A DNA stretch of 42,409 nucleotides from Patescibacteria group bacterium. GTDB lineage: Bacteria > Patescibacteriota > Minisyncoccia > HO2-45-28. Made by a program: the position numbers and the translations under genes. The DNA is taken from positions 1 through 42,409 of the forward strand of contig JADFMT010000002.1 in the NCBI GenBank assembly GCA_022563755.1. Direction: 5' to 3'. Each line of letters opens with the position of its first letter. Positions within the stretch are counted from its first letter, which is position 1. Positions 10,675-42,409 of the stretch are shown here, one piece after another. The notes beneath the pieces were generated by a model. It made no database searches. It saw nothing but the letters and a program-made list of their open reading frames with translations, and was not told where the DNA came from.

Positions 10675-10746
10675 TATTGTGGACCCTACGTCGTTGAGAC
10701 TTCTCAGGATCCTACAAAAATATAGTCGCTTCGTTCCTTATTTTTG

Positions 10747-10819
10747 TGGACCTGACCGGATTTGAACCGGTAACCTTCCGCGTGCAAGGCGGATGCTCTA
10801 GCCATTGAGCTACAGGCCC
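10747..10819 (-). tRNA. tRNA-Ala (anticodon UGC)
   Basis: The reverse complement GGGCCTGTAGCTCAATGG..TCCGC-CTTGCAC-GCGGA..ACCGGTTCAAATCCGGT-CAGGTCC-A folds as a cloverleaf. It has the G3:U70 Ala identity pair and the anticodon loop CU-UGC-AC. CCA is not encoded. Confidence 0.9.
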
Positions 10820-14603: not shown

Positions 14604-14675
14604 GGGCGTATAGCTCAGTGGTAGAGCGCAGCTCTGATAAAGCTGAGGTCGAAGGTTCGATCCCTTCTACGCCCA
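14604..14675 (+). tRNA. tRNA-Ile (anticodon GAU)
   Basis: GGGCGTA-TA-GCTC-AGTGGTA-GAGC-G-CAGCT-CTGATAA-AGCTG-AGGTC-GAAGG-TTCGATC-CCTTC-TACGCCC-A is a clean cloverleaf. CCA is not encoded. Confidence 0.9.
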
Positions 14676-14683
14676 CATATACC

Positions 14684-15154: not shown

Positions 15155-16679
<1,525 letters not shown>

Positions 16680-17019: not shown

Positions 17020-18168
17020 TCAAATATCACTGTCAAGGCCGTTATCCACAGCGATATTTTTGTATTCATAAGCGCTTGGACGAATTTTACGCTGCATTGT
17101 CTTGTAATCAACCTCAACAAGCCCAAATCGCGGCAAAAAGCCTTTATCCCATTCAAAATTATCCAAAAGCGACCAATAGAAATATCCCCGTACATCAACG
17201 CCGTTTTCTATCGCCTTACGAACCCAGCGAAGATGGTCGCGAATGAAAGCCGCTCGCTTTTCGTCTTTCGCATCCGCAATTCCGTTTTCCATAATATAAA
17301 TCGGTTTTTTATATTTGTATAAATCTTCTAGAACATGATAAATCCCTTCCGGATAAATCTCCCAGCCCATGTCTGAGATAACTTTATTTTCATTTTGATT
17401 GAACCTTAAACCCTGAATGCGGCTGTGAAAATAATAATTAAGGCCGATAAAATCCTGATGGTTTTTAATGTGATCTAAAAATCTGAAATTCCACCACCAA
17501 TCGGCAGCATGTTGAAGCAGCGCATTGATTCCTCTCCCCTCAAAATAGATATTATTTTTTGCGATGCCTACTTGCAGGTTTGAGTTTATCTTTTTTATTA
17601 CTTGATACGCCTGGATGTGTGCGTCCCTTAAATTTTTCAATATATCGATATATTGATATATTGATTTCTTTTGAGGCGGCCAAGTTCCTTTCAGATACGC
17701 ATTTGTTGCATAAAAGAGCGGTTCATTAAGGGTTATCCAAAATAACACGTCGCGGGAAAGTTCTTTAACAATCCTTTCTGCAAATCTGCTGAAATAAAAA
17801 CTAAATTTCTTATTTTTTAGTCCGCCTTTCTCTTGAAGCCATAGCGGAATCGTCCAATGCCAAAGTGTTACAAACGGTTCAAGATCGCGTTCGCGAAGCG
17901 CTTGTGTTACTTCTCGATAATGCTCAATTTCTTTTTCATTAAATTTGCCTTCCTCGGTCTCAATGCGCGCCCATTCAATAGACAACCGATGCGCATTGTG
18001 TCCCAAAGATTTAGCGATGCCAAAATCTTCTTGAAAACGACTGTAATGATCACATGCCCTGCCAGCATCGAAAACAGACGACCAGTTATTTTTTATCCCG
18101 CCTTCAACTTGATAAGCGCTGGTTGAAGCGCCCCAATAGAAATTTTTTGGAAAGTTAGGTTTGGACAT
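17020..18168 (-). CDS. Glycoside hydrolase family 1 (beta-glucosidase-like), short form
   Basis: It has FYWGASTSAYQVEGG at the N-terminus, TLNEP (acid/base Glu) and YIMENG (nucleophile Glu). At 382 aa it is shorter than the roughly 450 aa I recall as typical for GH1 enzymes. Confidence 0.85.
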   Translation of the reverse strand: MSKPNFPKNFYWGASTSAYQVEGGIKNNWSSVFDAGRACDHYSRFQEDFGIAKSLGHNAHRLSIEWARIETEEGKFNEKEIEHYREVTQALRERDLEPFVTLWHWTIPLWLQEKGGLKNKKFSFYFSRFAERIVKELSRDVLFWITLNEPLFYATNAYLKGTWPPQKKSIYQYIDILKNLRDAHIQAYQVIKKINSNLQVGIAKNNIYFEGRGINALLQHAADWWWNFRFLDHIKNHQDFIGLNYYFHSRIQGLRFNQNENKVISDMGWEIYPEGIYHVLEDLYKYKKPIYIMENGIADAKDEKRAAFIRDHLRWVRKAIENGVDVRGYFYWSLLDNFEWDKGFLPRFGLVEVDYKTMQRKIRPSAYEYKNIAVDNGLDSDI

Positions 18169-18174
18169 TAGAAA

Positions 18175-19170
18175 TTAGTTATTCGTCCTTTTTATTGCTT
18201 CCTTTGCAATCTCCCACATTTCGGGTTTATTTTCTACTTCTTTCAGCCAATACCACCATTCTACACCCCAAAAATAAAAGGTATCAAAACCCGAGCGCGC
18301 GGCGTACGCTAAAACGCCACGGAATACTTCCGGATTCATGGAAATATACTGTTCATCCACGTTAATCTCGTAGGTCATGCGCTTTGCCCATGATTCCCCT
18401 TGCAGCTCGATAATGACCGCGGGTTTATCACCCAGAACGAGGTTGATGAATCCGCGCTTTAAGCGAAAAAAAGAGGGTGGCAATGGATAGGTAAATGTGC
18501 CGAGCCATTCGTTCCAGATGACGCGATAAAGCGTTGAGCCGAAAATATCGGAACGCCGGGCAGCCGGAACCCAAAATGACAGTTCACCGGAATCGGTTAC
18601 CATAATAGGGCGCCCATCCAGTGAACGCACGAGCTCGATTTCGGCGTCAAGGAATTCTTTCGAAAAAGGAGGACATTCTCCGAACGCCAAAAAAGGTTCG
18701 TTCTCCACCTGCCACGTTTTAACCGCGGACGATTTTTTATAGCGATTTACAACTACTTCGATATATCGCAGTAGTTGTTTATTTTGCTCGGCTTCATCAA
18801 GCCTTTCTGCCCAATCCGGAATATGACATTCGGGCCAACGCGGGAGTTTGCGACCCACGGCAAGGATTACCTCAACGTTTCGCCTGCGAGCTTCTTGAAT
18901 TTGCCAATCCAAGCGCGAGAAGTTATACCTGCCTTGAGCGGGCTCAATTTCATTCCAATATGCCGGAAGTCGGATGTTTTTTATCCCAAGATCGTCAAAA
19001 AGGGCCAAATACACCTCTTTCGGATCCAGCCCAAAACGCTCGGCATAAAAAGATGAATAGGTTGCGCCAAACGTCTGGGGATTTAAGGACGGAGTGCGCC
19101 CGATAAGGATCGCGCCCACGCTTACGAGCATCACCATACCCCCGATTGCAATTTTAAGCCACGTCTTCAT
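18175..19170 (-). CDS. Membrane-anchored clan GH-A (TIM-barrel, GH5/GH42-like) glycoside hydrolase
   Basis: It has an N-terminal TM/signal anchor. IRLPAYWNEIEPAQGRYNFSRLDWQI and WQVENEP match the (beta/alpha)8 clan-A pattern with a catalytic NEP Glu. Confidence 0.6.
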   Translation of the reverse strand: MKTWLKIAIGGMVMLVSVGAILIGRTPSLNPQTFGATYSSFYAERFGLDPKEVYLALFDDLGIKNIRLPAYWNEIEPAQGRYNFSRLDWQIQEARRRNVEVILAVGRKLPRWPECHIPDWAERLDEAEQNKQLLRYIEVVVNRYKKSSAVKTWQVENEPFLAFGECPPFSKEFLDAEIELVRSLDGRPIMVTDSGELSFWVPAARRSDIFGSTLYRVIWNEWLGTFTYPLPPSFFRLKRGFINLVLGDKPAVIIELQGESWAKRMTYEINVDEQYISMNPEVFRGVLAYAARSGFDTFYFWGVEWWYWLKEVENKPEMWEIAKEAIKRTNN

Positions 19171-21978: not shown

Positions 21979-22611
21979 ATTTAAATATTCAAGGCACATT
22001 TTTCGACCGATGCCCAAGGAACGAGATACGCGCCGAACCGTCTGAATTCTTGCAAGGAGGTCTCTTTTGTATTTATTTTTTCGAGCCCAGCTCTCAAGCT
22101 GATTTAAAAAATGATTAAAATTTAGTGAATCCTTACCGGCTTCCTCAAGCATGCGTCCACGCACAGGCAAGCTAGAATCAAGAAAGGGTTTTAAATCGTA
22201 CGAGTGCTCAGGCTCTCCAAGATATAATTCGATGAGACGTGAACGAATGGTGTCGGGCAACATATCTGCGCTTGAGGCAACAAGAAAAAAGTGACGACCC
22301 GCTGGTGGCTCTTCAAGAATCTTTAAAAGTGCAGTGGATGCCCAATGCCCCAGTAGGTCGGCATTGATAATAAAACATTTTCGCTTTCTCGCAAGGACCC
22401 CCGTATATGCTTTTTCTTTTATTTTTCGCACGTCCACGATGCGAACCTCATGTCTATACATCTCAACTTCTCCTCCTATCTCGCAAATCCATCTCGCCAA
22501 CCGATCATAATCAACTTCTCCAATTAAAAGATACCCGTGAGCAAGTTGACTATTCCTTGCGTGGTTTTCCAGACGAGGGTGTATCCCGTTAGAGATCCTT
22601 GGATGTATCAT
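21967..22611 (-). CDS. holB: DNA polymerase III delta-prime-like clamp-loader subunit
   Basis: It has AHGYLLIG, ALLKILEEPP and TIRSRLIE motifs and lacks an intact P-loop, as in delta-prime. Its start overlaps the mreB stop by 4 bp. Confidence 0.65.
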   Translation of the reverse strand: MIHPRISNGIHPRLENHARNSQLAHGYLLIGEVDYDRLARWICEIGGEVEMYRHEVRIVDVRKIKEKAYTGVLARKRKCFIINADLLGHWASTALLKILEEPPAGRHFFLVASSADMLPDTIRSRLIELYLGEPEHSYDLKPFLDSSLPVRGRMLEEAGKDSLNFNHFLNQLESWARKNKYKRDLLARIQTVRRVSRSLGIGRKMCLEYLNAFI

Positions 22612-23627
22612 GGCTGGCGTTTTCCAAAAAGACTTTTTTTGTAGATATCCAAATGTTCAAGCGCAACCCCGGTTCCCCTTGCAACACAAAATAATGCGCC
22701 CTCGGCAACGTATGCCCTTACCCCGGTGGCACGATAAACCAAATCTGTAATATTTTGTAACAGTGAACCGCCACCTGTCATCACAATTCCTTGGTCAATA
22801 ATATCGGAAGCAAGCTCGGGCGGGGTTTCTTGAAGGACAAACTTAATCGCTTTTGTAATATCTCGAAGCTCGTTTTCGATCGCCTTTGCAATCTCGTTGG
22901 TAGAGACTTCCGTGCTTCGCGGAAGGCCCGTTAAAATGTCGCGGCCTTTGACCGTATGCGTATCCTCTTTGTCAACCGGAATGGCAGATCCAATTGAGAT
23001 TTTAATTCCTTCAGCCATACGCTCCCCAATCGCAAGATTAAAAGATTTCTTCACATAATCGATAATCGCTTGGTCAATTTTATTTCCGGCTACCTTTACC
23101 GATTTGGAAGCCACGATCCCTCCGAGGGATATAACTGCCACGTCCGTTGTGCCCCCGCCAATATCAACTACCATGTGGCCGATCGGTTCATGAATGGGGA
23201 TACCAGCCCCGATCGCTGCCAAGATGGGCTCTTTCATGACATAGGCTTTCCGGGCTCCAGACTTCAGCGCGGCTTCAATCACAGAACGCCTCTCCGTAGA
23301 TGTTACGCCAGCCGGAACAGAAACCAGGACTTCGGGCTTAAAAATATTCGCGCGCCCGAGCGCCTTTCCAATGTAATACCGAAGCATAGATTCTGTTACC
23401 CGATAGTCCGCAATAACGCCGTCCTTCATCGGTCGATACGCAATGATATTGTCGGGCGTCTTGCCCACCATACTCTTGGCCTCATTCCCTACGGCAAGAA
23501 CTCTATTTTCTGATGCGGAAACGACCACCACGGACGGTTCGTTAAGTACCACGCCTTTATTCGGTACAAATACCAGAGTATTTGCTGTACCAAGATCAAT
23601 CCCTAATTTTTTCACAAAAAATGGCAT
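22608..23627 (-). CDS. mreB: Rod-shape-determining actin homologue MreB
   Basis: It has LGIDLGTANTLV, MVVDIGGGTTDVAVISLGGIV and IVMTGGGSLL, which are actin-fold phosphate and adenosine motifs. Confidence 0.95.
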   Translation of the reverse strand: MPFFVKKLGIDLGTANTLVFVPNKGVVLNEPSVVVVSASENRVLAVGNEAKSMVGKTPDNIIAYRPMKDGVIADYRVTESMLRYYIGKALGRANIFKPEVLVSVPAGVTSTERRSVIEAALKSGARKAYVMKEPILAAIGAGIPIHEPIGHMVVDIGGGTTDVAVISLGGIVASKSVKVAGNKIDQAIIDYVKKSFNLAIGERMAEGIKISIGSAIPVDKEDTHTVKGRDILTGLPRSTEVSTNEIAKAIENELRDITKAIKFVLQETPPELASDIIDQGIVMTGGGSLLQNITDLVYRATGVRAYVAEGALFCVARGTGVALEHLDIYKKSLFGKRQP

Positions 23628-38648: not shown

Positions 38649-38675
38649 ATCTCTAAAATATCACTATATATTCAA

Positions 38676-38710
38676 AAACAAAACAGTCGCCCTAGGCGAC
38701 TGTTTTGTTT
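38676..38710 (-). terminator. 16-bp perfect hairpin upstream of hpf and downstream of the paralogue array
   Basis: aaacaaaacagtcgcc cta ggcgactgttttgttt, with T-rich distal stem and flank on both strands. A second small palindrome ccgctcatgagcgg is adjacent. Confidence 0.55.
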
Positions 38711-39004
38711 CCGCTCATGAGCGGATGTTTGTTAGCGGCGGCTTTTTCGTCGTTTCTTCGGAGCCGCTTTCTTCTTTTTTCTTTTCACCATCAGTCTAGA
38801 CTATTTAATCTTGCAACAAACATCGACCGCGGTATGTTCGTTGTTCCAATAATACATGCAGAGCGTAAAAAAATTTGAAAAATCTTTTTACTTTTCTACT
38901 CCCAAGGTGCATCTATATTTATTATCCCAAACTTGAAACACAAAAACAACGAAAAACAACCAAAACTGTGGATAACTTCCAATTTTTCGCTACAAGAAAA
39001 TCTA

Positions 39005-39712
39005 TCACAATTTCTCTTCAATATCTTGAATTTCTTTCTCCATGTTTCGCCCTAACGTATCGAGTTCGCGAAGAACATGTTCTTTCCGGGCGCGTTCATC
39101 GGCTGAAAGTTTTTTCCCAGACAATTCTAAAATACGGAGTTCATCTAAAAGGTCGCGACGAAGTTCTGAGAGTCCTTCGCGAACCGAATCCTTAGCTTCC
39201 CTAATTTCCTTCGTTAGCAATCGCGCATTCAGTCGCTTTACTTTCCATGAAAAATACCAAAAAGCAGCTATACCCAAAGCCAATAAAACGACCACTAAAA
39301 ACGAAAGGAATGCGAATTTTATATTGATACCGCCAACCGTAATCCCAGAGACAATGGCCTTAAATACTCGCGGATTTGACCAGCTAGACGCGCTATCTTT
39401 GGCATGTAAAAGTCGCGCCCGCACTTCCCAATCGCCAGCCGTAAGCGGAACTTTCTCAGCAAGCACCCATTCGCCATTCACGTCGCTTCGCACGGTAAAA
39501 CGCACAGGCCGCGCGCCTTGCTTAGTTAGCTGAATTTGTACCGCAGAGTTCGGCCTAGAGACCCCTTCAATGTAGAGAATCTCATCCAATGGATAATACA
39601 CATCGGGGCTGATATTAATCGTAGGCGCAGGCAGATGCTCTGCGGCAATGAGAGTACCTGCAAATAAAAGAACCAAAGAAAGAGAGAAAGAGAATAATTT
39701 GAAAAGCTTCAT
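39005..39712 (-). CDS. Paralogue 1 of the tandem array: signal peptide, Ig-like ectodomain, one TM helix, cytoplasmic helical tail
   Basis: 235 aa. The signal peptide is MKLFKLFSFSLSLVLLFAGTLIAA. Ectodomain motifs are HLPAPTINISPDVYYPLDEILYIEG..NGEWVLAEKVPLTAGDWEVRAR..WSNPR. The TM helix is FAFLSFLVVVLLALGIAAFWYF, followed by a basic stretch. The tail has LSELRRDLLDEL...LSADERARKEHVLREL. Its start shares 1 nt with the stop of paralogue 2 (TAATG). Confidence 0.8.
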   Translation of the reverse strand: MKLFKLFSFSLSLVLLFAGTLIAAEHLPAPTINISPDVYYPLDEILYIEGVSRPNSAVQIQLTKQGARPVRFTVRSDVNGEWVLAEKVPLTAGDWEVRARLLHAKDSASSWSNPRVFKAIVSGITVGGINIKFAFLSFLVVVLLALGIAAFWYFSWKVKRLNARLLTKEIREAKDSVREGLSELRRDLLDELRILELSGKKLSADERARKEHVLRELDTLGRNMEKEIQDIEEKL

Positions 39713-40365
39713 TAAATGTCCTTTAGCCTTCGATTAATTTCTCTTTCAACATGTTCAAGATCGCGCAATAACTTATCGCGATGTTCTTCTTCTTCTTTAG
39801 AAAGTGATCGTTTTCGCGCTAAATGCCGAAGCTCTTCGGCAACATTGCGGCGAAGTTCTGAAAAATCCTGCTCGATCTGGAGCCCGGTTTTTTCGCGAGC
39901 AACCTGGCGCATTCGAAAGAAAAGATAAAAAATGACACCGGCGGCAATCATTAAAAGAAATGCAATCGCGCTAAATCTTATATTCACCCTGCCAATGGTG
40001 ACTCCGGTGATAATAGATTTAATTATCCGCGGGTTTGACCAAAGAGAGGTTCTCTCAGCCTCGATGACGCGAGCACGAACCTCCCAGTTCCCTCCTTCCA
40101 GCGGAACTCTTTCAGCGAGCACCCATTCGCCGTTTTGGTCACTTCTCGTAACCAGTTTTAACGGTTTTGCTCCTGGTTTTAAAAATTGGATTTGAAGAGT
40201 CGCATTCGGTTTTGCCCTCCCCTCAAGATATAAAATTTCGTCCACGGGATAATAAATATCAGGGTTGACATAAATGGTTGGGGTCGGCAAATCAAAGGCG
40301 GCCGAGGCAACTCCGACAAAAAGAAGAAAAAGGACGACAATAACTGAATAATGATATCTAGTCAT
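39712..40365 (-). CDS. Paralogue 2 of the tandem array (same architecture)
   Basis: 217 aa. It has DLPTPTIYVNPDIYYPVDEILYLEGRAKPN..NGEWVLAERVPLEGGNWEVRAR..WSNPR, a TM helix, and the tail IEQDFSELRRNVAEELRHL..LSKEEEEHRDKLLRDL. It has an ATGA overlap with paralogue 3. Confidence 0.8.
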   Translation of the reverse strand: MTRYHYSVIVVLFLLFVGVASAAFDLPTPTIYVNPDIYYPVDEILYLEGRAKPNATLQIQFLKPGAKPLKLVTRSDQNGEWVLAERVPLEGGNWEVRARVIEAERTSLWSNPRIIKSIITGVTIGRVNIRFSAIAFLLMIAAGVIFYLFFRMRQVAREKTGLQIEQDFSELRRNVAEELRHLARKRSLSKEEEEHRDKLLRDLEHVEREINRRLKDI

Positions 40366-41057
40366 AGAATGTCTCTTAATTTTTTCTCAATTGACTGTTC
40401 GGCTTCGCGAAGTCCTCTTAAAAGATGTTGGCGGTGATCCTCTTCTTTTGAGGAGAGCGGTCCCTGTCCGGCGCGTTCGGTTAAATGTTCGAGCTCGTCT
40501 AAAATGTTTCGCCTGAGCTCGGCAAAATTTTGCTCAATTAATACTTCGGCAGCTTCGCGCTCTTTCTCGCGCGTGACTTTCTTTACCCGTAAAAAGAAAT
40601 ACAAAATGGCAGCACCGCTTAAAATTAAGATGATAATCAAAAGAAAAATCAAAAAAGAAAATTTAATTGCAGCACCCCCAATACTCACGCCCGTTGCAAT
40701 CACGCGAATGATTCGCGGATTTGAGAAAGCAGATCCCAGTCCTGAACTTTCAATGATGCGCACTCGCACTTCCCAATTTCCGGCATTTAAAGGAACTTTC
40801 TGGGCAAACACCCATTCGCCGTTTATATCGCCCCTTACAATAAATTTTAAAGGCTTTGCGCCATCTTTTCGAAAGTTCACCTCAACATTGGTATTTGGCC
40901 GCGCTCTGCCCTCCAGATATAAAATTTCATCAAAGGGGTAATAGATATCCGGATTTACACCAATGGTTGGCGCGGGTAGATGCCTCACAGCAATTCCGGC
41001 CTCAGGAAATAAAAAAAACAAAGAAACAATCACGAGTAAAATAAGAAACGGTTTCAT
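40362..41057 (-). CDS. Paralogue 3 of the tandem array (same architecture)
   Basis: 231 aa. It has HLPAPTIGVNPDIYYPFDEILYLEGRARPN..NGEWVFAQKVPLNAGNWEVRVR..FSNPR, a TM helix, and the tail IEQNFAELRRNILDELEHL..LSSKEEDHRQHLLRGL. It has an ATGA overlap with paralogue 4. Confidence 0.8.
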   Translation of the reverse strand: MKPFLILLVIVSLFFLFPEAGIAVRHLPAPTIGVNPDIYYPFDEILYLEGRARPNTNVEVNFRKDGAKPLKFIVRGDINGEWVFAQKVPLNAGNWEVRVRIIESSGLGSAFSNPRIIRVIATGVSIGGAAIKFSFLIFLLIIILILSGAAILYFFLRVKKVTREKEREAAEVLIEQNFAELRRNILDELEHLTERAGQGPLSSKEEDHRQHLLRGLREAEQSIEKKLRDIL

Positions 41058-41758
41058 GAAATATTTTCTATTTTTTTCTTAATCGTTTCCTCGACCTCTT
41101 TAAGCTCGCGCAAAAGATGCTCGCGATGTTCTTTTTCTTCCTCGCTTAATTTTCCATCTTTCAAGCGTTTTTCTATATGCTCTAACTCTTGAGTAATTTT
41201 TGCTCGAAGCTCGGCAAAATTCTGATCAATGACTGCGCCCACAGACTCAAGTTCTTTTTTGCGAAGCGCCTCTTGAAATTTTTCCTTCATGCGACGCGCT
41301 TGGATCATATAATACCATGCGCCTGCCGCAGAAATGATCAAAAGAATGACAATAATAAACGTAAGAAGAGCAAATTTAATCGTAACACTGCCAATTGTAA
41401 TTCCGGTAACAATTACTTTAAAAATGCGTGGGTTGGACCACGTAGATACCGCCCCTGAACTCTCGGCTACGCGCGCTCTTACCTGCCAATCTCCTTTCTC
41501 TAATGGGACTTTCTCCGCAAACACCCATTCTCCATTCCCATCGCTCTTTGAGGTAAGCGTAATCGGTTTTGCGCCCTGCTTTTGAAACTGAATCTGAACC
41601 GTGGAATTTGGCCGTGCTCGTCCTTCCAGATACAAAATTTCATCCCCGGCGTAATAAATATCCGGGCGAATCGCAATAGATGGGATTGGCAAATGCCCTG
41701 CAGCCCATCCCATCTTCGCAAAAAATATCATTGCAAGAAGAATTAGAATTTTTTTCAT
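41054..41758 (-). CDS. Paralogue 4 of the tandem array (same architecture)
   Basis: 234 aa. It has HLPIPSIAIRPDIYYAGDEILYLEGRARPN..NGEWVFAEKVPLEKGDWQVRAR..WSNPR, a TM helix, and the tail IDQNFAELRAKITQELEHI..LSEEEKEHREHLLREL. It has an ATGA overlap with paralogue 5. Confidence 0.8.
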   Translation of the reverse strand: MKKILILLAMIFFAKMGWAAGHLPIPSIAIRPDIYYAGDEILYLEGRARPNSTVQIQFQKQGAKPITLTSKSDGNGEWVFAEKVPLEKGDWQVRARVAESSGAVSTWSNPRIFKVIVTGITIGSVTIKFALLTFIIVILLIISAAGAWYYMIQARRMKEKFQEALRKKELESVGAVIDQNFAELRAKITQELEHIEKRLKDGKLSEEEKEHREHLLRELKEVEETIKKKIENIS

Positions 41759-42409
41759 GTCATGTTGTTTAACCGTTTCTCAATTTTTTCCTCGCACTCA
41801 CGTAAATCCTTAAATAACTTTTCGCGGTGGTTTTCTTCTTCTGCTGAAAGCCTCTTGCCGCCGTGCCTTTTTTCTAGATGTTCTAACTCTTCCATAATAC
41901 TTTCTCGAAGTTCATTAAAATCCTGTTCGAGGTGCGCTTGAGTGGCTTCGTGTTCCTTCTCGCGTACTTTTTGCTCAAGCGCTTCGGTTTTTTGACGAGT
42001 CTCCTGCTCGAACACCAAACGCTGAATCTTGCGTATACGCAAGACGGAATAGACAAAAAGCGCGATGCCCAATGCAAGAATGAAGATAAGAAGCAGAATG
42101 ATCGGCACATATCGTATTTTAATGGACCCGAATAGAAAGCCTGAGACCACTGAACGAATAATCCGAGGATTTGACCAATCAGAAATTCCGGGATTATTGA
42201 TGACTCGTGCCCTGACGGTCCATTCACCGCGCGCAAGCTCCAGGCGATCGGCGAAAAACCATTCTCCATTCGAGTTTACCGCAACCTGCAAGCGAACCGG
42301 CTGTCTATCTGGTTTTTCAAAAAATAATTCTACCTCAGATAGGGAAGTCGCGATTCCTTCAATATAGAGCGTCTCTTCTAGAGGGTAGTATTTAGTCGGC
42401 GCAACACTA
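41755..42409 (-). CDS. Paralogue 5 of the tandem array, partial (N-terminus beyond the right window edge), more divergent
   Basis: The reading frame stays open upstream of the tracked TTG at 42291. Hand translation from 42408 gives SVAPTKYYPLEETLYIEGIATSLSEVELFFEKPDRQPVRLQVAVNSNGEWFFADRLELARGEWTVRARV..WSNPR, a TM helix, then LEQDFNELRESIMEELEHL..LSAEEENHREKLFKDL. Confidence 0.75.
   Translation of the reverse strand, partial: SVAPTKYYPLEETLYIEGIATSLSEVELFFEKPDRQPVRLQVAVNSNGEWFFADRLELARGEWTVRARVINNPGISDWSNPRIIRSVVSGFLFGSIKIRYVPIILLLIFILALGIALFVYSVLRIRKIQRLVFEQETRQKTEALEQKVREKEHEATQAHLEQDFNELRESIMEELEHLEKRHGGKRLSAEEENHREKLFKDLRECEEKIEKRLNNMT

Follow-up and report, generated by a model that had tools for sequence, protein, structure and literature searches.

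The five consecutive genes described here encode membrane proteins that we interpret, with moderate confidence, as transmembrane anchor subunits of a non-cellulosomal, CPR-specific cohesin-dockerin surface complex, the family having been expanded to a heteromer in this organism. The genes are located at the edge of a 42,409-nt stretch of DNA (the window), which corresponds to positions 1 to 42,409 of the forward strand of contig JADFMT010000002.1 (assembly GCA_022563755.1). The source is a Patescibacteria group bacterium (Bacteria; Patescibacteriota; Minisyncoccia; HO2-45-28). The gene order, gene fusions, protein folds, conservation, and selection observed for the genes of the complex form the basis of this interpretation.

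Five paralogous genes in a coupled array

All five minus-strand open reading frames reported in the initial annotation are present (Table 1). The junctions between them were also as described, with ATGA overlaps at copy 5/copy 4, copy 4/copy 3, and copy 3/copy 2 and TAATG at copy 2/copy 1. Copy 5 is cut by the window edge, and ~34 N-terminal codons are absent. In the relative L002 (88% DNA identity), copy 5 (86% identical to the window copy) is complete: it encodes 251 aa including a signal peptide, and the gene before it is a different one; thus, the array comprises exactly five copies. A longer operon terminates with the array in L002. In the window, the operon probably ends at a hairpin ~300 nt past the stop codon of copy 1. 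The predicted fold of the minus-strand RNA from positions 38665 to 38725 had an energy of −31.3 kcal/mol (z = −8.6 versus shuffles), and the hairpin was not flagged in a simple consensus terminator scan.

Table 1. Features of the array and of its copy 4 product in the window
Feature	Position	Strand	Basis
Copy 5, type A (A-type ectodomain + A-type tail)	41755..42409	-	Translation, L002 ortholog, clustering
Copy 4, mosaic type C, 234 aa	41054..41758	-	ORF, AF2 model, type comparison
Copy 4 signal peptide	about 41702-41758	-	AF2 model
Copy 4 Ig domain	about 41408-41659	-	AF2 model
Copy 4 juxtamembrane hairpin	about 41375-41407	-	AF2 model
Copy 4 TM	about 41306-41374	-	AF2 model
Copy 4 cytoplasmic helical hairpin	41057-41305	-	AF2 model
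Copy 3, mosaic type C, 231 aa	40362..41057	-	ORF, family HMM, dN/dS 0.14
Copy 2, mosaic type C, 217 aa, shortest tail (68 aa)	39712..40365	-	ORF, family HMM, dN/dS 0.17
Copy 1, type B, 235 aa	39005..39712	-	ORF, type comparison
Terminator-like hairpin, 15-bp stem then U-run	38674..38709	-	Sequence + RNA fold

A family HMM matched each copy with E values of 1e-62 to 1e-106, which places paralogy far beyond chance. Ectodomain sharing had been estimated by eye at half to two-thirds of residues, in good agreement with the 52 to 66% identity found among copies 1 to 4; identity to copy 5 was 42 to 44%. Purifying selection acts on all five copies, and the dN/dS values of copies 2 to 5 versus the orthologous copies in L002 were 0.14 to 0.17.

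Architecture of the family

Each copy has an N-terminal hydrophobic segment that terminates in an A-x-A-like site, one strongly hydrophobic segment at about residues 130 to 150 followed by Arg/Lys, and a charged helical tail of 68 to 98 aa. The AlphaFold2 (AF2) model of copy 4 (pLDDT 88) consists of a seven-strand beta-sandwich (residues 34 to 117), a short hairpin (residues 120 to 127), a continuous helix (residues 129 to 198), and a second helix (residues 206 to 233). Topology was assigned from hydropathy, the positive-inside rule, and the AF2 model, and the helical tail is predicted to be cytoplasmic because it is positioned after the TM helix and the Arg/Lys cluster.

The ectodomain is most probably a Big_13-type bacterial Ig-like domain. 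Among the five copies, Big_13 (PF19077) matches were reported for copies 4 and 5 only, with scores (21.8 and 15.6 bits) below the gathering threshold of 27 bits, and longer proteins with the same module had significant Big_13 matches in 23 of 27 cases (best, 7.5e-11). A common strand motif, ‘L..G.Y.V.VRA.D’, was identified with hhalign. Giant adhesins from many phyla contain this type of domain in tandem, and in giant proteins the ectodomain profile matched as many as 47 repeats in a row. The Big_13 repeats of giant bacterial adhesins have the same generic Ig sandwich as the family ectodomain, but only 1 of 48 giant adhesins has the hairpin-TM-tail module, whereas the family has a single domain attached to it. 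It is the hairpin-TM-tail part alone that is peculiar, being CPR specific and lacking a family model. The helical tail matched no family or structure, and searches of the five window proteins with Pfam and NCBIfam revealed no cohesin or dockerin domain, their fold being a seven-strand Ig sandwich. The proposal that the proteins belong to no recognisable family therefore stands insofar as no Pfam or NCBIfam model scored above threshold but not for the ectodomain, which is recognisable as an Ig domain, most probably of the Big_13 type. A search of the available literature yielded no publication describing the family.

Conservation is highest in the Ig domain and hairpin, where the mean frequency of the top residue across the family was 0.73 to 0.75; in the tail and TM it was 0.51 to 0.57. 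Within the TM, small residues occupy one position in 100% of members. The conservation of the Ig domain, the hairpin, and the small-residue position fits conserved protein-protein contacts.

Copy types and linkage to a cohesin protein

Most genomes have one or two copies of the family (types A and B), and the window array is composed of A, three mosaic copies, and B. The mosaic (type C) copies combine a B-like ectodomain with an A-like tail, and in the independent lineage L024 the types again run from A through C copies to B. Copy 1 is the ortholog of the distal copy present in nearly all lineages (55% identity overall to L010_2 and L003_2), its identity to type-B orthologs averaging 64% over the ectodomain and 56% over the tail. 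Copy 5 groups with members that adjoin or are fused to the cohesin protein in other lineages. Conservation does not extend to the five-gene array, as other lineages carry one to three modules; thus, a fixed 1:1:1:1:1 pentamer could not be the general mechanism. Copies of the family are often single, but they are never isolated.

At ~30 distinct loci in many Patescibacteria lineages, a count that takes in every family member for which upstream sequence is available, family members are directly downstream of c444/p285 or fused to c444. The c444 protein is a membrane protein of ~440 aa with an N-terminal cohesin domain. p285 is a conserved two-TM protein with a helical ectodomain; at many loci its gene separates the A and B genes, and it follows c444 where it is present. 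There are 105 proteins with the full Ig-TM-tail module, 82 of which stand alone and 23 of which have an N-terminal extension. A cohesin-type profile matched every one of these extensions (23/23), some of the proteins being simply a cohesin plus the module. The module is at the C terminus of 23 of 120 c444 homologs. In the fusions the hydrophobic region of the family signal peptide provides a second TM, and therefore both parts keep their topology.

The structure of c444 was evaluated with the AF2 model of P0191, which is 92% identical to the L002 ortholog (pLDDT, 92.5). The model superposed on cellulosomal type-I cohesins (4ums, 6kge, 2vn5, 4dh2, 4uyp, 1g1k, and 3ul4) with TM scores of 0.70 to 0.78 and rmsd values of 2.4 to 3.2 Å, and as modeled c444 carries a type-I cohesin with a nine-strand beta jelly-roll fold. 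The Pfam Cohesin model matched 6 of 12 c444 orthologs (best, 4.9e-7), and several c444 homologs are labeled ‘cohesin domain-containing protein’ by NCBI. Because the score of L002 c444 (17.4 bits) is below the Pfam threshold of 24.1 and the c444 cohesin profile had no match in the PDB by sequence, the evidence for the cohesin fold comes from the AF2 model.

A dockerin protein is encoded upstream of c444 in the same operon. Dockerin_1 was detected in 9 of 12 orthologs (best, 1.3e-8); the score of the L002 protein was 21.4 bits, below the Pfam threshold of 22.9. The dockerin profile matched solved dockerins (best, 2y3n_B at 3e-6), and both D-x-N-x-D...D loops (‘DLNCDGKxxLxD’ and ‘DFNxDxxVNxxD’) are invariant in the 12-ortholog alignment. 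Apart from the dockerin, a PamT-like motif at the N terminus is all that these proteins have, plus fn3/Big_6 domains in some cases. The giant proteins encoded upstream vary between lineages. Co-encoding in ~25 loci suggests that the dockerin of the operon may bind the cohesin of the operon directly and in a Ca-dependent manner.

A proposed cohesin-dockerin surface complex

In the complex proposed here, the five genes would be the 3′ end of the operon. Just past the window edge would be c444, a type-I membrane protein presenting its cohesin on an FnIII/Ig stalk with its own TM, and genes further upstream would encode a small TM protein and a giant surface protein in addition to the secreted dockerin protein with the PamT-like beta motif. 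Sec would export each family member, and its signal peptide would probably be cleaved, leaving the Ig domain and juxtamembrane hairpin outside the cell and the helical hairpin inside. The subunits may pack beside c444 via the Ig domain/hairpin and TM and provide a cytoplasmic coiled-coil base for the cohesin stalk. Capture of the Ca-binding dockerin by the cohesin would then tether the dockerin/giant-protein assembly to the cell. The minimal system would be c444 plus one type-B subunit, to which many lineages appear to add a type-A subunit, often fused to c444. The overlapping stop/start codons couple translation, the probable outcome being a heteromeric base whose subunits occur in fixed proportions. 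We infer that the proteins associate physically and that the cohesin binds the dockerin, and we likewise infer the stoichiometry and the kind of cargo. As counterpoints to this interpretation, most lineages manage with one or two copies, and additional anchors for c444 are not obviously needed, its own TM helix being present.

The initial annotation had suggested a hetero-oligomeric envelope or cell surface complex, for example in an episymbiotic small-genome bacterium. The gene context points to a multisubunit complex of this kind, and the organism is a Patescibacteria/CPR bacterium. The remark in that annotation that the full-length architecture could be matched to no characterized system needs revision: the architecture can be traced to a known principle, as the module that anchors cohesin-bearing CPR surface proteins in the membrane and is encoded beside a dockerin gene.

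One of the closest likenesses is to the single-cohesin anchors of cellulosomes, such as OlpA and OlpC of Clostridium thermocellum, in which a cell-bound type-I cohesin captures the Ca-binding dockerin of a secreted partner. The modeled c444 cohesin superposed on the OlpA/OlpC structures 3ul4 and 4dh2 with TM scores of 0.69 to 0.75, and the dockerin of the operon resembles cellulosomal dockerins. Cellulosomal anchoring proteins use S-layer-homology repeats, whereas anchoring in the CPR system would be through TM helices and separate Ig-TM-coiled-coil subunits. Unlike in cellulosomes, the dockerin protein of the CPR operon has no glycoside hydrolase; furthermore, the anchor family has no counterpart in cellulosomes, and its carriers are small-genome CPR bacteria. 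A strict cellulosome was rejected, as there are no enzyme-borne dockerins and c444 has a single cohesin, in contrast to multi-cohesin scaffoldins. The archaeal S-layer stalk protein SlaB, a Sec-exported beta-sandwich, has a coiled coil and is anchored in the membrane at its C terminus, thereby tethering the protein layer outside. It is a functional analogy only, with no sequence relationship to the family; a weak NCBIfam match (E = 0.12) is at noise level. The coiled coil of SlaB is extracellular and precedes the TM, whereas the helical region of the family follows the TM and is predicted to be cytoplasmic.

Wider and alternative explanations

A broader possibility, which we put forward tentatively, is that an undescribed surface organelle, widespread in CPR bacteria, is built from the family, c444, the dockerin protein bearing the PamT-like motif, the giant secreted protein, and the small TM proteins. 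It would be an appendage or adhesin plugged by a cohesin-dockerin joint into a heteromeric transmembrane socket, with the cytoplasmic coiled-coil tails, in their two recombinable classes A and B, coupling the socket inward. Host attachment would be a plausible role for the complex.

The family might instead consist of transmembrane signaling or regulatory subunits, the Ig domain sensing loading of the cohesin stalk and the tail relaying this inward, perhaps with p285. The tails are conserved in two classes, A and B, which have been recombined with ectodomains, and this suggests that the tail has its own specific partner; in addition, p285 is conserved between the A and B genes, and the cytoplasmic juxtamembrane helix of c444 has a nearly invariant W/H/H/D motif. 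However, no signaling domain was detected in the family tails or p285, the neighborhood contains no conserved kinase, sigma factor, or other output gene, and p285 is absent from the window's own lineage, making signaling an unlikely primary role. Such a role can coexist with that of anchor subunit.

It is quite improbable that the family contributes parts to a Pam-like pilus (CPR type, donor-strand exchange), either as PamR-like terminators or tethers or as PamC/PamD-like chaperones with one paralog per pilin type. According to the available text on the Pam pilus, its Ig-like/FnIII proteins have a C-terminal TM helix that keeps them in the membrane, an architecture like that of the family, and include PamR, a membrane-anchored terminator that tethers the fiber, and PamC and PamD, which are membrane-anchored chaperones (bioRxiv 10.64898/2026.03.03.709456). 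The same text describes PamC/PamD as a two-domain PapD/FimC-like chaperone fold plus a C-terminal TM helix and PamR, predicted to be RbmA-like, as two tandem FnIII domains with an N-terminal donor strand and a C-terminal TM helix (bioRxiv 10.64898/2026.03.03.709456), whereas the family has one complete seven-strand Ig domain and adds a long cytoplasmic helical tail to the TM helix, which alone is described there for PamC/D/R. The conserved N-terminal segment of the family is unlikely to act as a free donor strand because it is an interdomain linker in single-chain relatives. RbmA was among the Foldseek matches of the ectodomain, although weakly (rank 44; TMq, 0.24).

Both Pam and the family system are CPR-specific surface systems without a trans-envelope machine. 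The dockerin protein is similar to PamT over its first ~75 residues: 9 of 12 dockerin-protein orthologs were matched by NCBIfam NF058579 (‘CPR-type pilus protein PamT’; best E = 6e-9). However, that match covers model positions 6 to 79 of 241 only, reaches at best 35 bits versus a cutoff of 240, and falls in the neighboring dockerin protein, not in the family. The NCBIfam models for CPR pili did not match the family at E ≤ 1 or the scanned neighbors at E ≤ 0.01. Type IV pilin genes adjoin the cluster in L009 and L011. No PamA/PamB-type pilins, described as a beta-sandwich NTD, a linker strand, and a truncated Ig CTD in the available text, were found among 16 neighboring proteins in NCBIfam and Pfam sequence scans covering part of the upstream ORFs; according to the authors, distant Pam pilins are missed by sequence searches (bioRxiv 10.64898/2026.03.03.709456). 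Pam pilins are reported mainly from Saccharimonadia and Microgenomatia (bioRxiv 10.64898/2026.03.03.709456), whereas most family loci are labeled as other candidate lineages, and the available text mentions neither cohesin nor dockerin for Pam, in contrast to the cohesin-dockerin pair of the family operon.

Independent surface receptors or adhesins, each Ig ectodomain binding a host or environmental ligand, are very unlikely, although this would be the simplest form of the host-attachment idea in the initial annotation: the proteins are built like a type-I Ig-like receptor, Foldseek with the copy 4 ectodomain returned generic Ig-fold matches, adhesin extender domains, and immune receptors, and cultivated members of the group are described as episymbionts in the available text of PMC12206443, but the ectodomain is the most conserved part across lineages and paralogs, the opposite of a diversifying host-binding surface, a single ~100-aa Ig domain beside the membrane probably stays within the cell wall, and the invariable linkage or fusion to the cohesin protein points to a subunit role.

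Implications

Much of bacterial diversity falls within the CPR/Patescibacteria, whose cultivated members are attached to other cells, but the surface machinery of the group is poorly charted beyond type IV pili and the Pam pilus (2026). The interpretation of the family as anchor subunits turns an anonymous array into a defined, conserved operon for a membrane-anchored cohesin, a dockerin protein, and dedicated Ig-TM-coiled-coil subunits. In a Tn-seq study of a cultivated Saccharibacterium, a dockerin-domain envelope protein was essential (PMC10633639), which suggests, by analogy, that such modules can matter for CPR growth. If the proposed complex is correct, cohesin-dockerin biology would extend well beyond cellulosomes. 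If the genes specify a surface organelle, it would give monoderm bacteria with minimal genomes a new way to anchor structures outside the cell and might underlie episymbiotic attachment.

Five coupled genes at the end of an operon

The five minus-strand open reading frames reported in the initial annotation were found at exactly the positions claimed, as were the junctions between them, three ATGA overlaps and one TAATG. The copies had been described as clearly diverged; pairwise identity in a full-length alignment of all five proteins was 35 to 54%, and ectodomain identity was 52 to 66% within copies 1 to 4 (copy 1 being at the 3' end of the array) and 42 to 44% against copy 5. Comparison of the window with its closest relative gave dN/dS values of 0.14 to 0.17 for copies 2 to 5, indicating that these are functional genes. 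A hairpin and U-run past copy 1 probably mark the end of the operon. This hairpin was not flagged in a scan for consensus terminators and was found by folding that segment.

Elsewhere the window consists of ordinary chromosome, with a 16S rRNA gene and genes for DnaB, SerRS, MreB, DnaE, GatB and what we take, by eye, to be SecA. No 23S gene follows the 16S rRNA gene anywhere in the window, and considering also the positions of tRNA-Ile and tRNA-Ala, the rRNA operon is unlinked.

Coordinates of the array, other window features and features of related loci (L, related loci or contigs; P, homologous proteins)
Feature	Location	Strand	Remark
Copy 1	window 39005-39712	minus	
Copy 2	window 39712-40365	minus	
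Copy 3	window 40362-41057	minus	
Copy 4	window 41054-41758	minus	
Copy 5	window 41755 to window end	minus	
15-bp hairpin, then U-run	window 38709-38674	minus	~300 nt past copy 1; folding z = -8.6
16S rRNA gene	window 15155-16679	minus	full length, without insertion
tRNA-Ile(GAT)	window 14604-14676	plus	strand opposite to nearby 16S rRNA gene
tRNA-Ala(TGC)	window 10746-10819	minus	4.3 kb away
Two neighboring glycoside hydrolase genes, then EamA transporter	window 17020-19170	minus	GH1; GH5/GH42-like TIM-barrel
MreB	window 22608-23627		
Mosaic copies 2-4	window 39712-41758		
Further mosaic members	L024:5359-6057; P0004-P0007, P0019, P0021, P0030		
p285	L001:9076-9930, L011:10040-10873, L015:2587-3465, L017:8641-9504, L024:4521-5375; also L031, L035, L040, L047		
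Very divergent family copies	L012/L013, 9193-9960 and 9965-10699		neither cleanly A nor B
Gene upstream of cluster	L001:1-6154		annotated product 10,871 aa
Unannotated beta-helix-like repeats	L002:2-3439		giant protein
Type IV pilin/pseudopilin-like genes	L009:2288-5645, L011:11635-14880		directly downstream of cluster
Class-A beta-lactamase/DD-peptidase-like hydrolase	L018:4344-5450, L010:1933-2904		upstream of cluster
SpoIID/LytB-domain protein	L018:10834-11898; L016:6640-7156		downstream of cluster; L018 scanned, L016 resemblance by eye only
23S_rRNA_IVP-type genes	L001:6188-6562, L005:6808-7182, L025:5670-6014, L017:9558-9956		L017 assigned by eye only
Split or fragmentary family genes	L017:9992-10692, L048:3278-4089, L030:1867-2091		

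An Ig-like ectodomain on a helical anchor

Hydropathy agreed with the single-pass architecture proposed initially: an N-terminal hydrophobic segment with A-x-A-like sites at its end, and a strongly hydrophobic segment at about residues 130 to 150 followed by Arg/Lys. The charged tails are 68 to 98 aa long. An AlphaFold2 model of copy 4 built from 44 family sequences (pLDDT 88) has a seven-stranded beta-sandwich (residues 34 to 117), a short hairpin (120 to 127), a continuous helix that includes the transmembrane (TM) segment (129 to 198) and a second helix (206 to 233), which opens with a conserved S/T-x-x-E motif that we read as a helix-capping box.

The initial annotation recognized no family. 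This stood for Pfam and NCBIfam, in which no model matched any of the five proteins at threshold, but not for the ectodomain, on which Big_13 and CBM_35_2 were the sole recurring subthreshold hints. In an exhaustive search of 1.84 billion representative proteins, the family HMM had 1,497 matches at E ≤ 1e-3 and 82 at E ≤ 1e-30, and the Ig part by itself matched up to 47 tandem repeats in giant adhesins. Thus, the ectodomain belongs to the widespread Big_13-type Ig class. Many of these adhesins end in anchor or secretion signals presumably typical of other phyla; that they share the anchor of the family was ruled out, the tail being present in 1 of 48. Foldseek comparison of the family model with the PDB returned generic Ig, FnIII and KIR-type domains only and no specific relative. 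Subthreshold Pfam, NCBIfam and PDB-profile matches (ApoE-like coiled coils, DUF3461, PspM, FliL, SlaB and others) were dismissed as noise arising from composition or coiled coils.

The conserved operon

A Logan contig from the closest relative (L002), 88% identical in DNA sequence to the window at 39.7 to 42.4 kb, extends further upstream. In L002, copy 5 is complete at 251 aa and has a signal peptide of its own, which means that the window falls short by only ~34 codons. A different gene precedes copy 5, and the array therefore has exactly five members, which gives the count that the initial annotation had sought from an extended contig. The genes upstream encode, in order, a 444-aa membrane-anchored cohesin protein (c444), a 294-aa protein, a 158-aa TM protein, a 274-aa protein and a giant repeat protein of >1,145 aa. 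Close homologs of copy 4 and c444 (IIA95_03685 and IIA95_03675) also share a 10.1-kb contig of an NCBI Patescibacteria MAG.

We used custom HMMs to annotate about 30 distinct loci taken from Patescibacteria MAGs. Among the names that these MAGs bear are Giovannonibacteria, Brennerbacteria, Ryanbacteria, Magasanikbacteria, Paceibacteria and Nealsonbacteria; Saccharibacteria is the label of some bins. The order in which the genes recur starts with a giant secreted protein, either of the LamG/DUF2341 type or with unannotated repeats. Next come a variable 320- to 460-aa protein, which is LamG/TafC-like in one locus and a class-A beta-lactamase/DD-peptidase-like hydrolase in two; a small TM protein of ~140 to 160 aa; a dockerin protein; optionally, a short (~300-aa) cohesin paralog; c444; a type A family member; optionally, a ~285-aa protein with two TM segments (p285); and a type B family member. 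At every locus with upstream sequence, a family member is either fused to c444 or encoded directly after c444 or p285. There is one module in ~9 loci, two in ~13 and three in one (L024). A conserved array had been expected in related genomes; the linkage to c444 or p285 is kept, but five modules occur in the window's lineage only.

Several other features were observed at these loci (table). Giant proteins elsewhere are 900 to 1,400+ aa long with DUF2341 and LamG, or have repeats like those in L002. The pilin-like genes, with N-termini such as 'KGFTLIELLVVIGIIAILAAI', occur in two related lineages. The flanking peptidoglycan-related enzymes could serve local wall remodeling for a surface structure. 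In several lineages, small four-helix-bundle genes of the 23S_rRNA_IVP type lie at varied positions inside the operon, with a weak bAvd match in L005 to L007. Diversity-generating retroelements have bAvd as their accessory protein; the flanks examined showed no reverse transcriptase. At three loci, the family gene is in two ORFs or present only as a 74-aa fragment; frameshift pseudogenes and misassembly are possible causes.

Paralog classes

A neighbor-joining tree and region-wise identities separated three groups. Type A comprises copy 5 and the members next to or fused to c444, and type B comprises copy 1 and the distal copy that is present in nearly all lineages and kept in nearly all one-copy genomes. 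Copies 2 to 4 are mosaic: their ectodomains are 56 to 62% identical to B orthologs and 45 to 46% to A, whereas their tails are 40 to 46% identical to A and 29 to 32% to B. This pattern points to recombination between paralogs or domain-wise conversion, and suggests that ectodomain and tail have separable partners. The mosaic class occurs in other lineages too (25 of 95 classified sequences, in a sample biased by the use of copy 4 as the search query). The order in L024 (fused A, p285, mosaic, B) mirrors that of the window (A, three mosaic, B).

In many lineages p285 is encoded between types A and B; it is missing from the window's lineage. Its helical ectodomain is flanked by two hydrophobic segments, and it has a highly conserved C-terminal motif, 'HRPFGDIM.FL.DM..GKRGQRLYFSSP.REIKESEEIIN'. 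A HAMP domain read from the p285 sequence was dropped, since Pfam, NCBIfam and PDB profile searches were all empty. Two recombinable tail classes and the presence of p285 would fit a family of signaling subunits, but no signaling domain was detected, and we consider this function unlikely.

Cohesin and dockerin partners

Several c444 orthologs carry the NCBI product name 'cohesin domain-containing protein', and the Pfam Cohesin model matched 6 of 12 orthologs (best, 4.9e-7), the L002 protein scoring slightly below threshold. A search of the PDB with the sequence profile found no cohesin, and the fold was therefore established with AlphaFold2 and Foldseek. The model of P0191, a homolog 92% identical to the L002 protein (pLDDT 92.5), superimposed on cellulosomal type-I cohesins with TM-scores of 0.70 to 0.78 and rmsd of 2.4 to 3.2 Å. 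Beyond the cohesin, the model continues with a tandem FnIII/Ig stalk and a juxtamembrane hairpin, followed by a TM helix and, in the cytoplasm, a helix of 34 residues. In this last helix, a W..H..H.......D pattern (P0191, ~399 to 413; W399, H402, H405 and D413) is nearly invariant in 87 sequences and could be a metal-binding or partner-binding site. The cohesin protein of L012/L013 (Ryanbacteria and a related MAG) is longer, at 518 to 529 aa.

The 294-aa protein encoded upstream of c444 belongs to a family with a canonical dockerin: Dockerin_1 matched 9 of 12 orthologs, at best with 1.3e-8; dockerins of known structure from cellulosomes were matched by the profile (2y3n_B, 3e-6); and there is no variation in either Ca-binding loop. 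In 9 of 12 orthologs (best, 6e-9), the N-terminal ~75 residues also matched the NCBIfam model 'CPR-type pilus protein PamT' over its first third. This motif, together with the membrane-tethered Ig proteins of the Pam system, raises the possibility that the family is a Pam-like pilus anchor or chaperone. However, the PamT match is partial and subthreshold (35 bits versus a cutoff of 240), the family has a single Ig domain instead of two, no pilin or chaperone model matched the family or the 16 neighboring proteins scanned, and the taxonomic range is different; we consider such a role unlikely. A search with the PamT-like motif retrieved 13 small hypothetical proteins, with no named Pam protein among them.

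Fusions and conservation of the anchor

The complete Ig-hairpin-TM-tail module either stands alone at 210 to 280 aa or forms the C-terminus of proteins of 360 to 1,066 aa. Among 105 such proteins, 82 are stand-alone and 23 are N-terminally extended; all 23 extensions match the cohesin-type profile built from c444, and some proteins, such as P0130 (369 aa), consist of cohesin and module and nothing more. Thus, the hairpin, TM helix and helical tail are a peculiar, CPR-restricted anchor that is always associated with cohesin-bearing proteins. Of the 120 best c444 homologs, 23 (19%) are fusions of 473 to 766 aa (644 to 766 aa in 20) with a C-terminal family module. These keep the hydrophobic region of the family's signal peptide and so have four hydrophobic segments (signal peptide, c444 TM1, TM2 as the former signal peptide, and TM3), which would leave both ectodomains outside and the helical tail inside. 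Such fusions are classical Rosetta-stone evidence, from which we infer that c444 and the adjacent family member lie side by side in the same membrane. The membrane-proximal modules of the two proteins are not demonstrably homologous, since the sole hhalign match was an Ig strand motif of 21 columns (probability, 29%).

Across the family, conservation (mean top-residue frequency) is highest in the Ig domain and hairpin (0.73 to 0.75), compared with 0.51 in the TM segment, where one position is 100% Gly/Ser/Ala and one Tyr is 93% conserved, and 0.54 to 0.57 in the tail. This high ectodomain conservation argues against a variable host ligand and for contact with a conserved partner, for example neighboring subunits or c444 in its membrane-proximal part. 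It also makes a function as independent adhesins unlikely, as does the obligatory linkage of the family to c444.

A putative cohesin-dockerin surface complex

All family members with a source name are called 'hypothetical protein', and full-text literature searches found no paper on the family or on a CPR cohesin-dockerin operon. The preprint on the Pam pilus (bioRxiv 10.64898/2026.03.03.709456) mentions neither cohesin nor dockerin. Cellulosomes already exemplify the principle of a dockerin being captured by a cell-bound cohesin. The anchor module appears to be undescribed, as do its paralog classes and the CPR operon.

In the best-supported reading, which we hold with moderate confidence, a noncellulosomal cohesin-dockerin surface complex has the five proteins as its transmembrane anchor subunits. 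This reading rests on the observed gene order, fusions, folds, selection and conservation; physical association of the subunits is inferred from these. The minimal complex would comprise c444 and one type B subunit, with the operon's cohesin and dockerin presumably binding each other. Candidates for the tethered cargo are the giant secreted protein, a surface layer and a fiber with the PamT-like motif as its nucleus. In the window's lineage, this base may have been elaborated into a heteromer, the parts of which would be made in fixed proportion through translational coupling.
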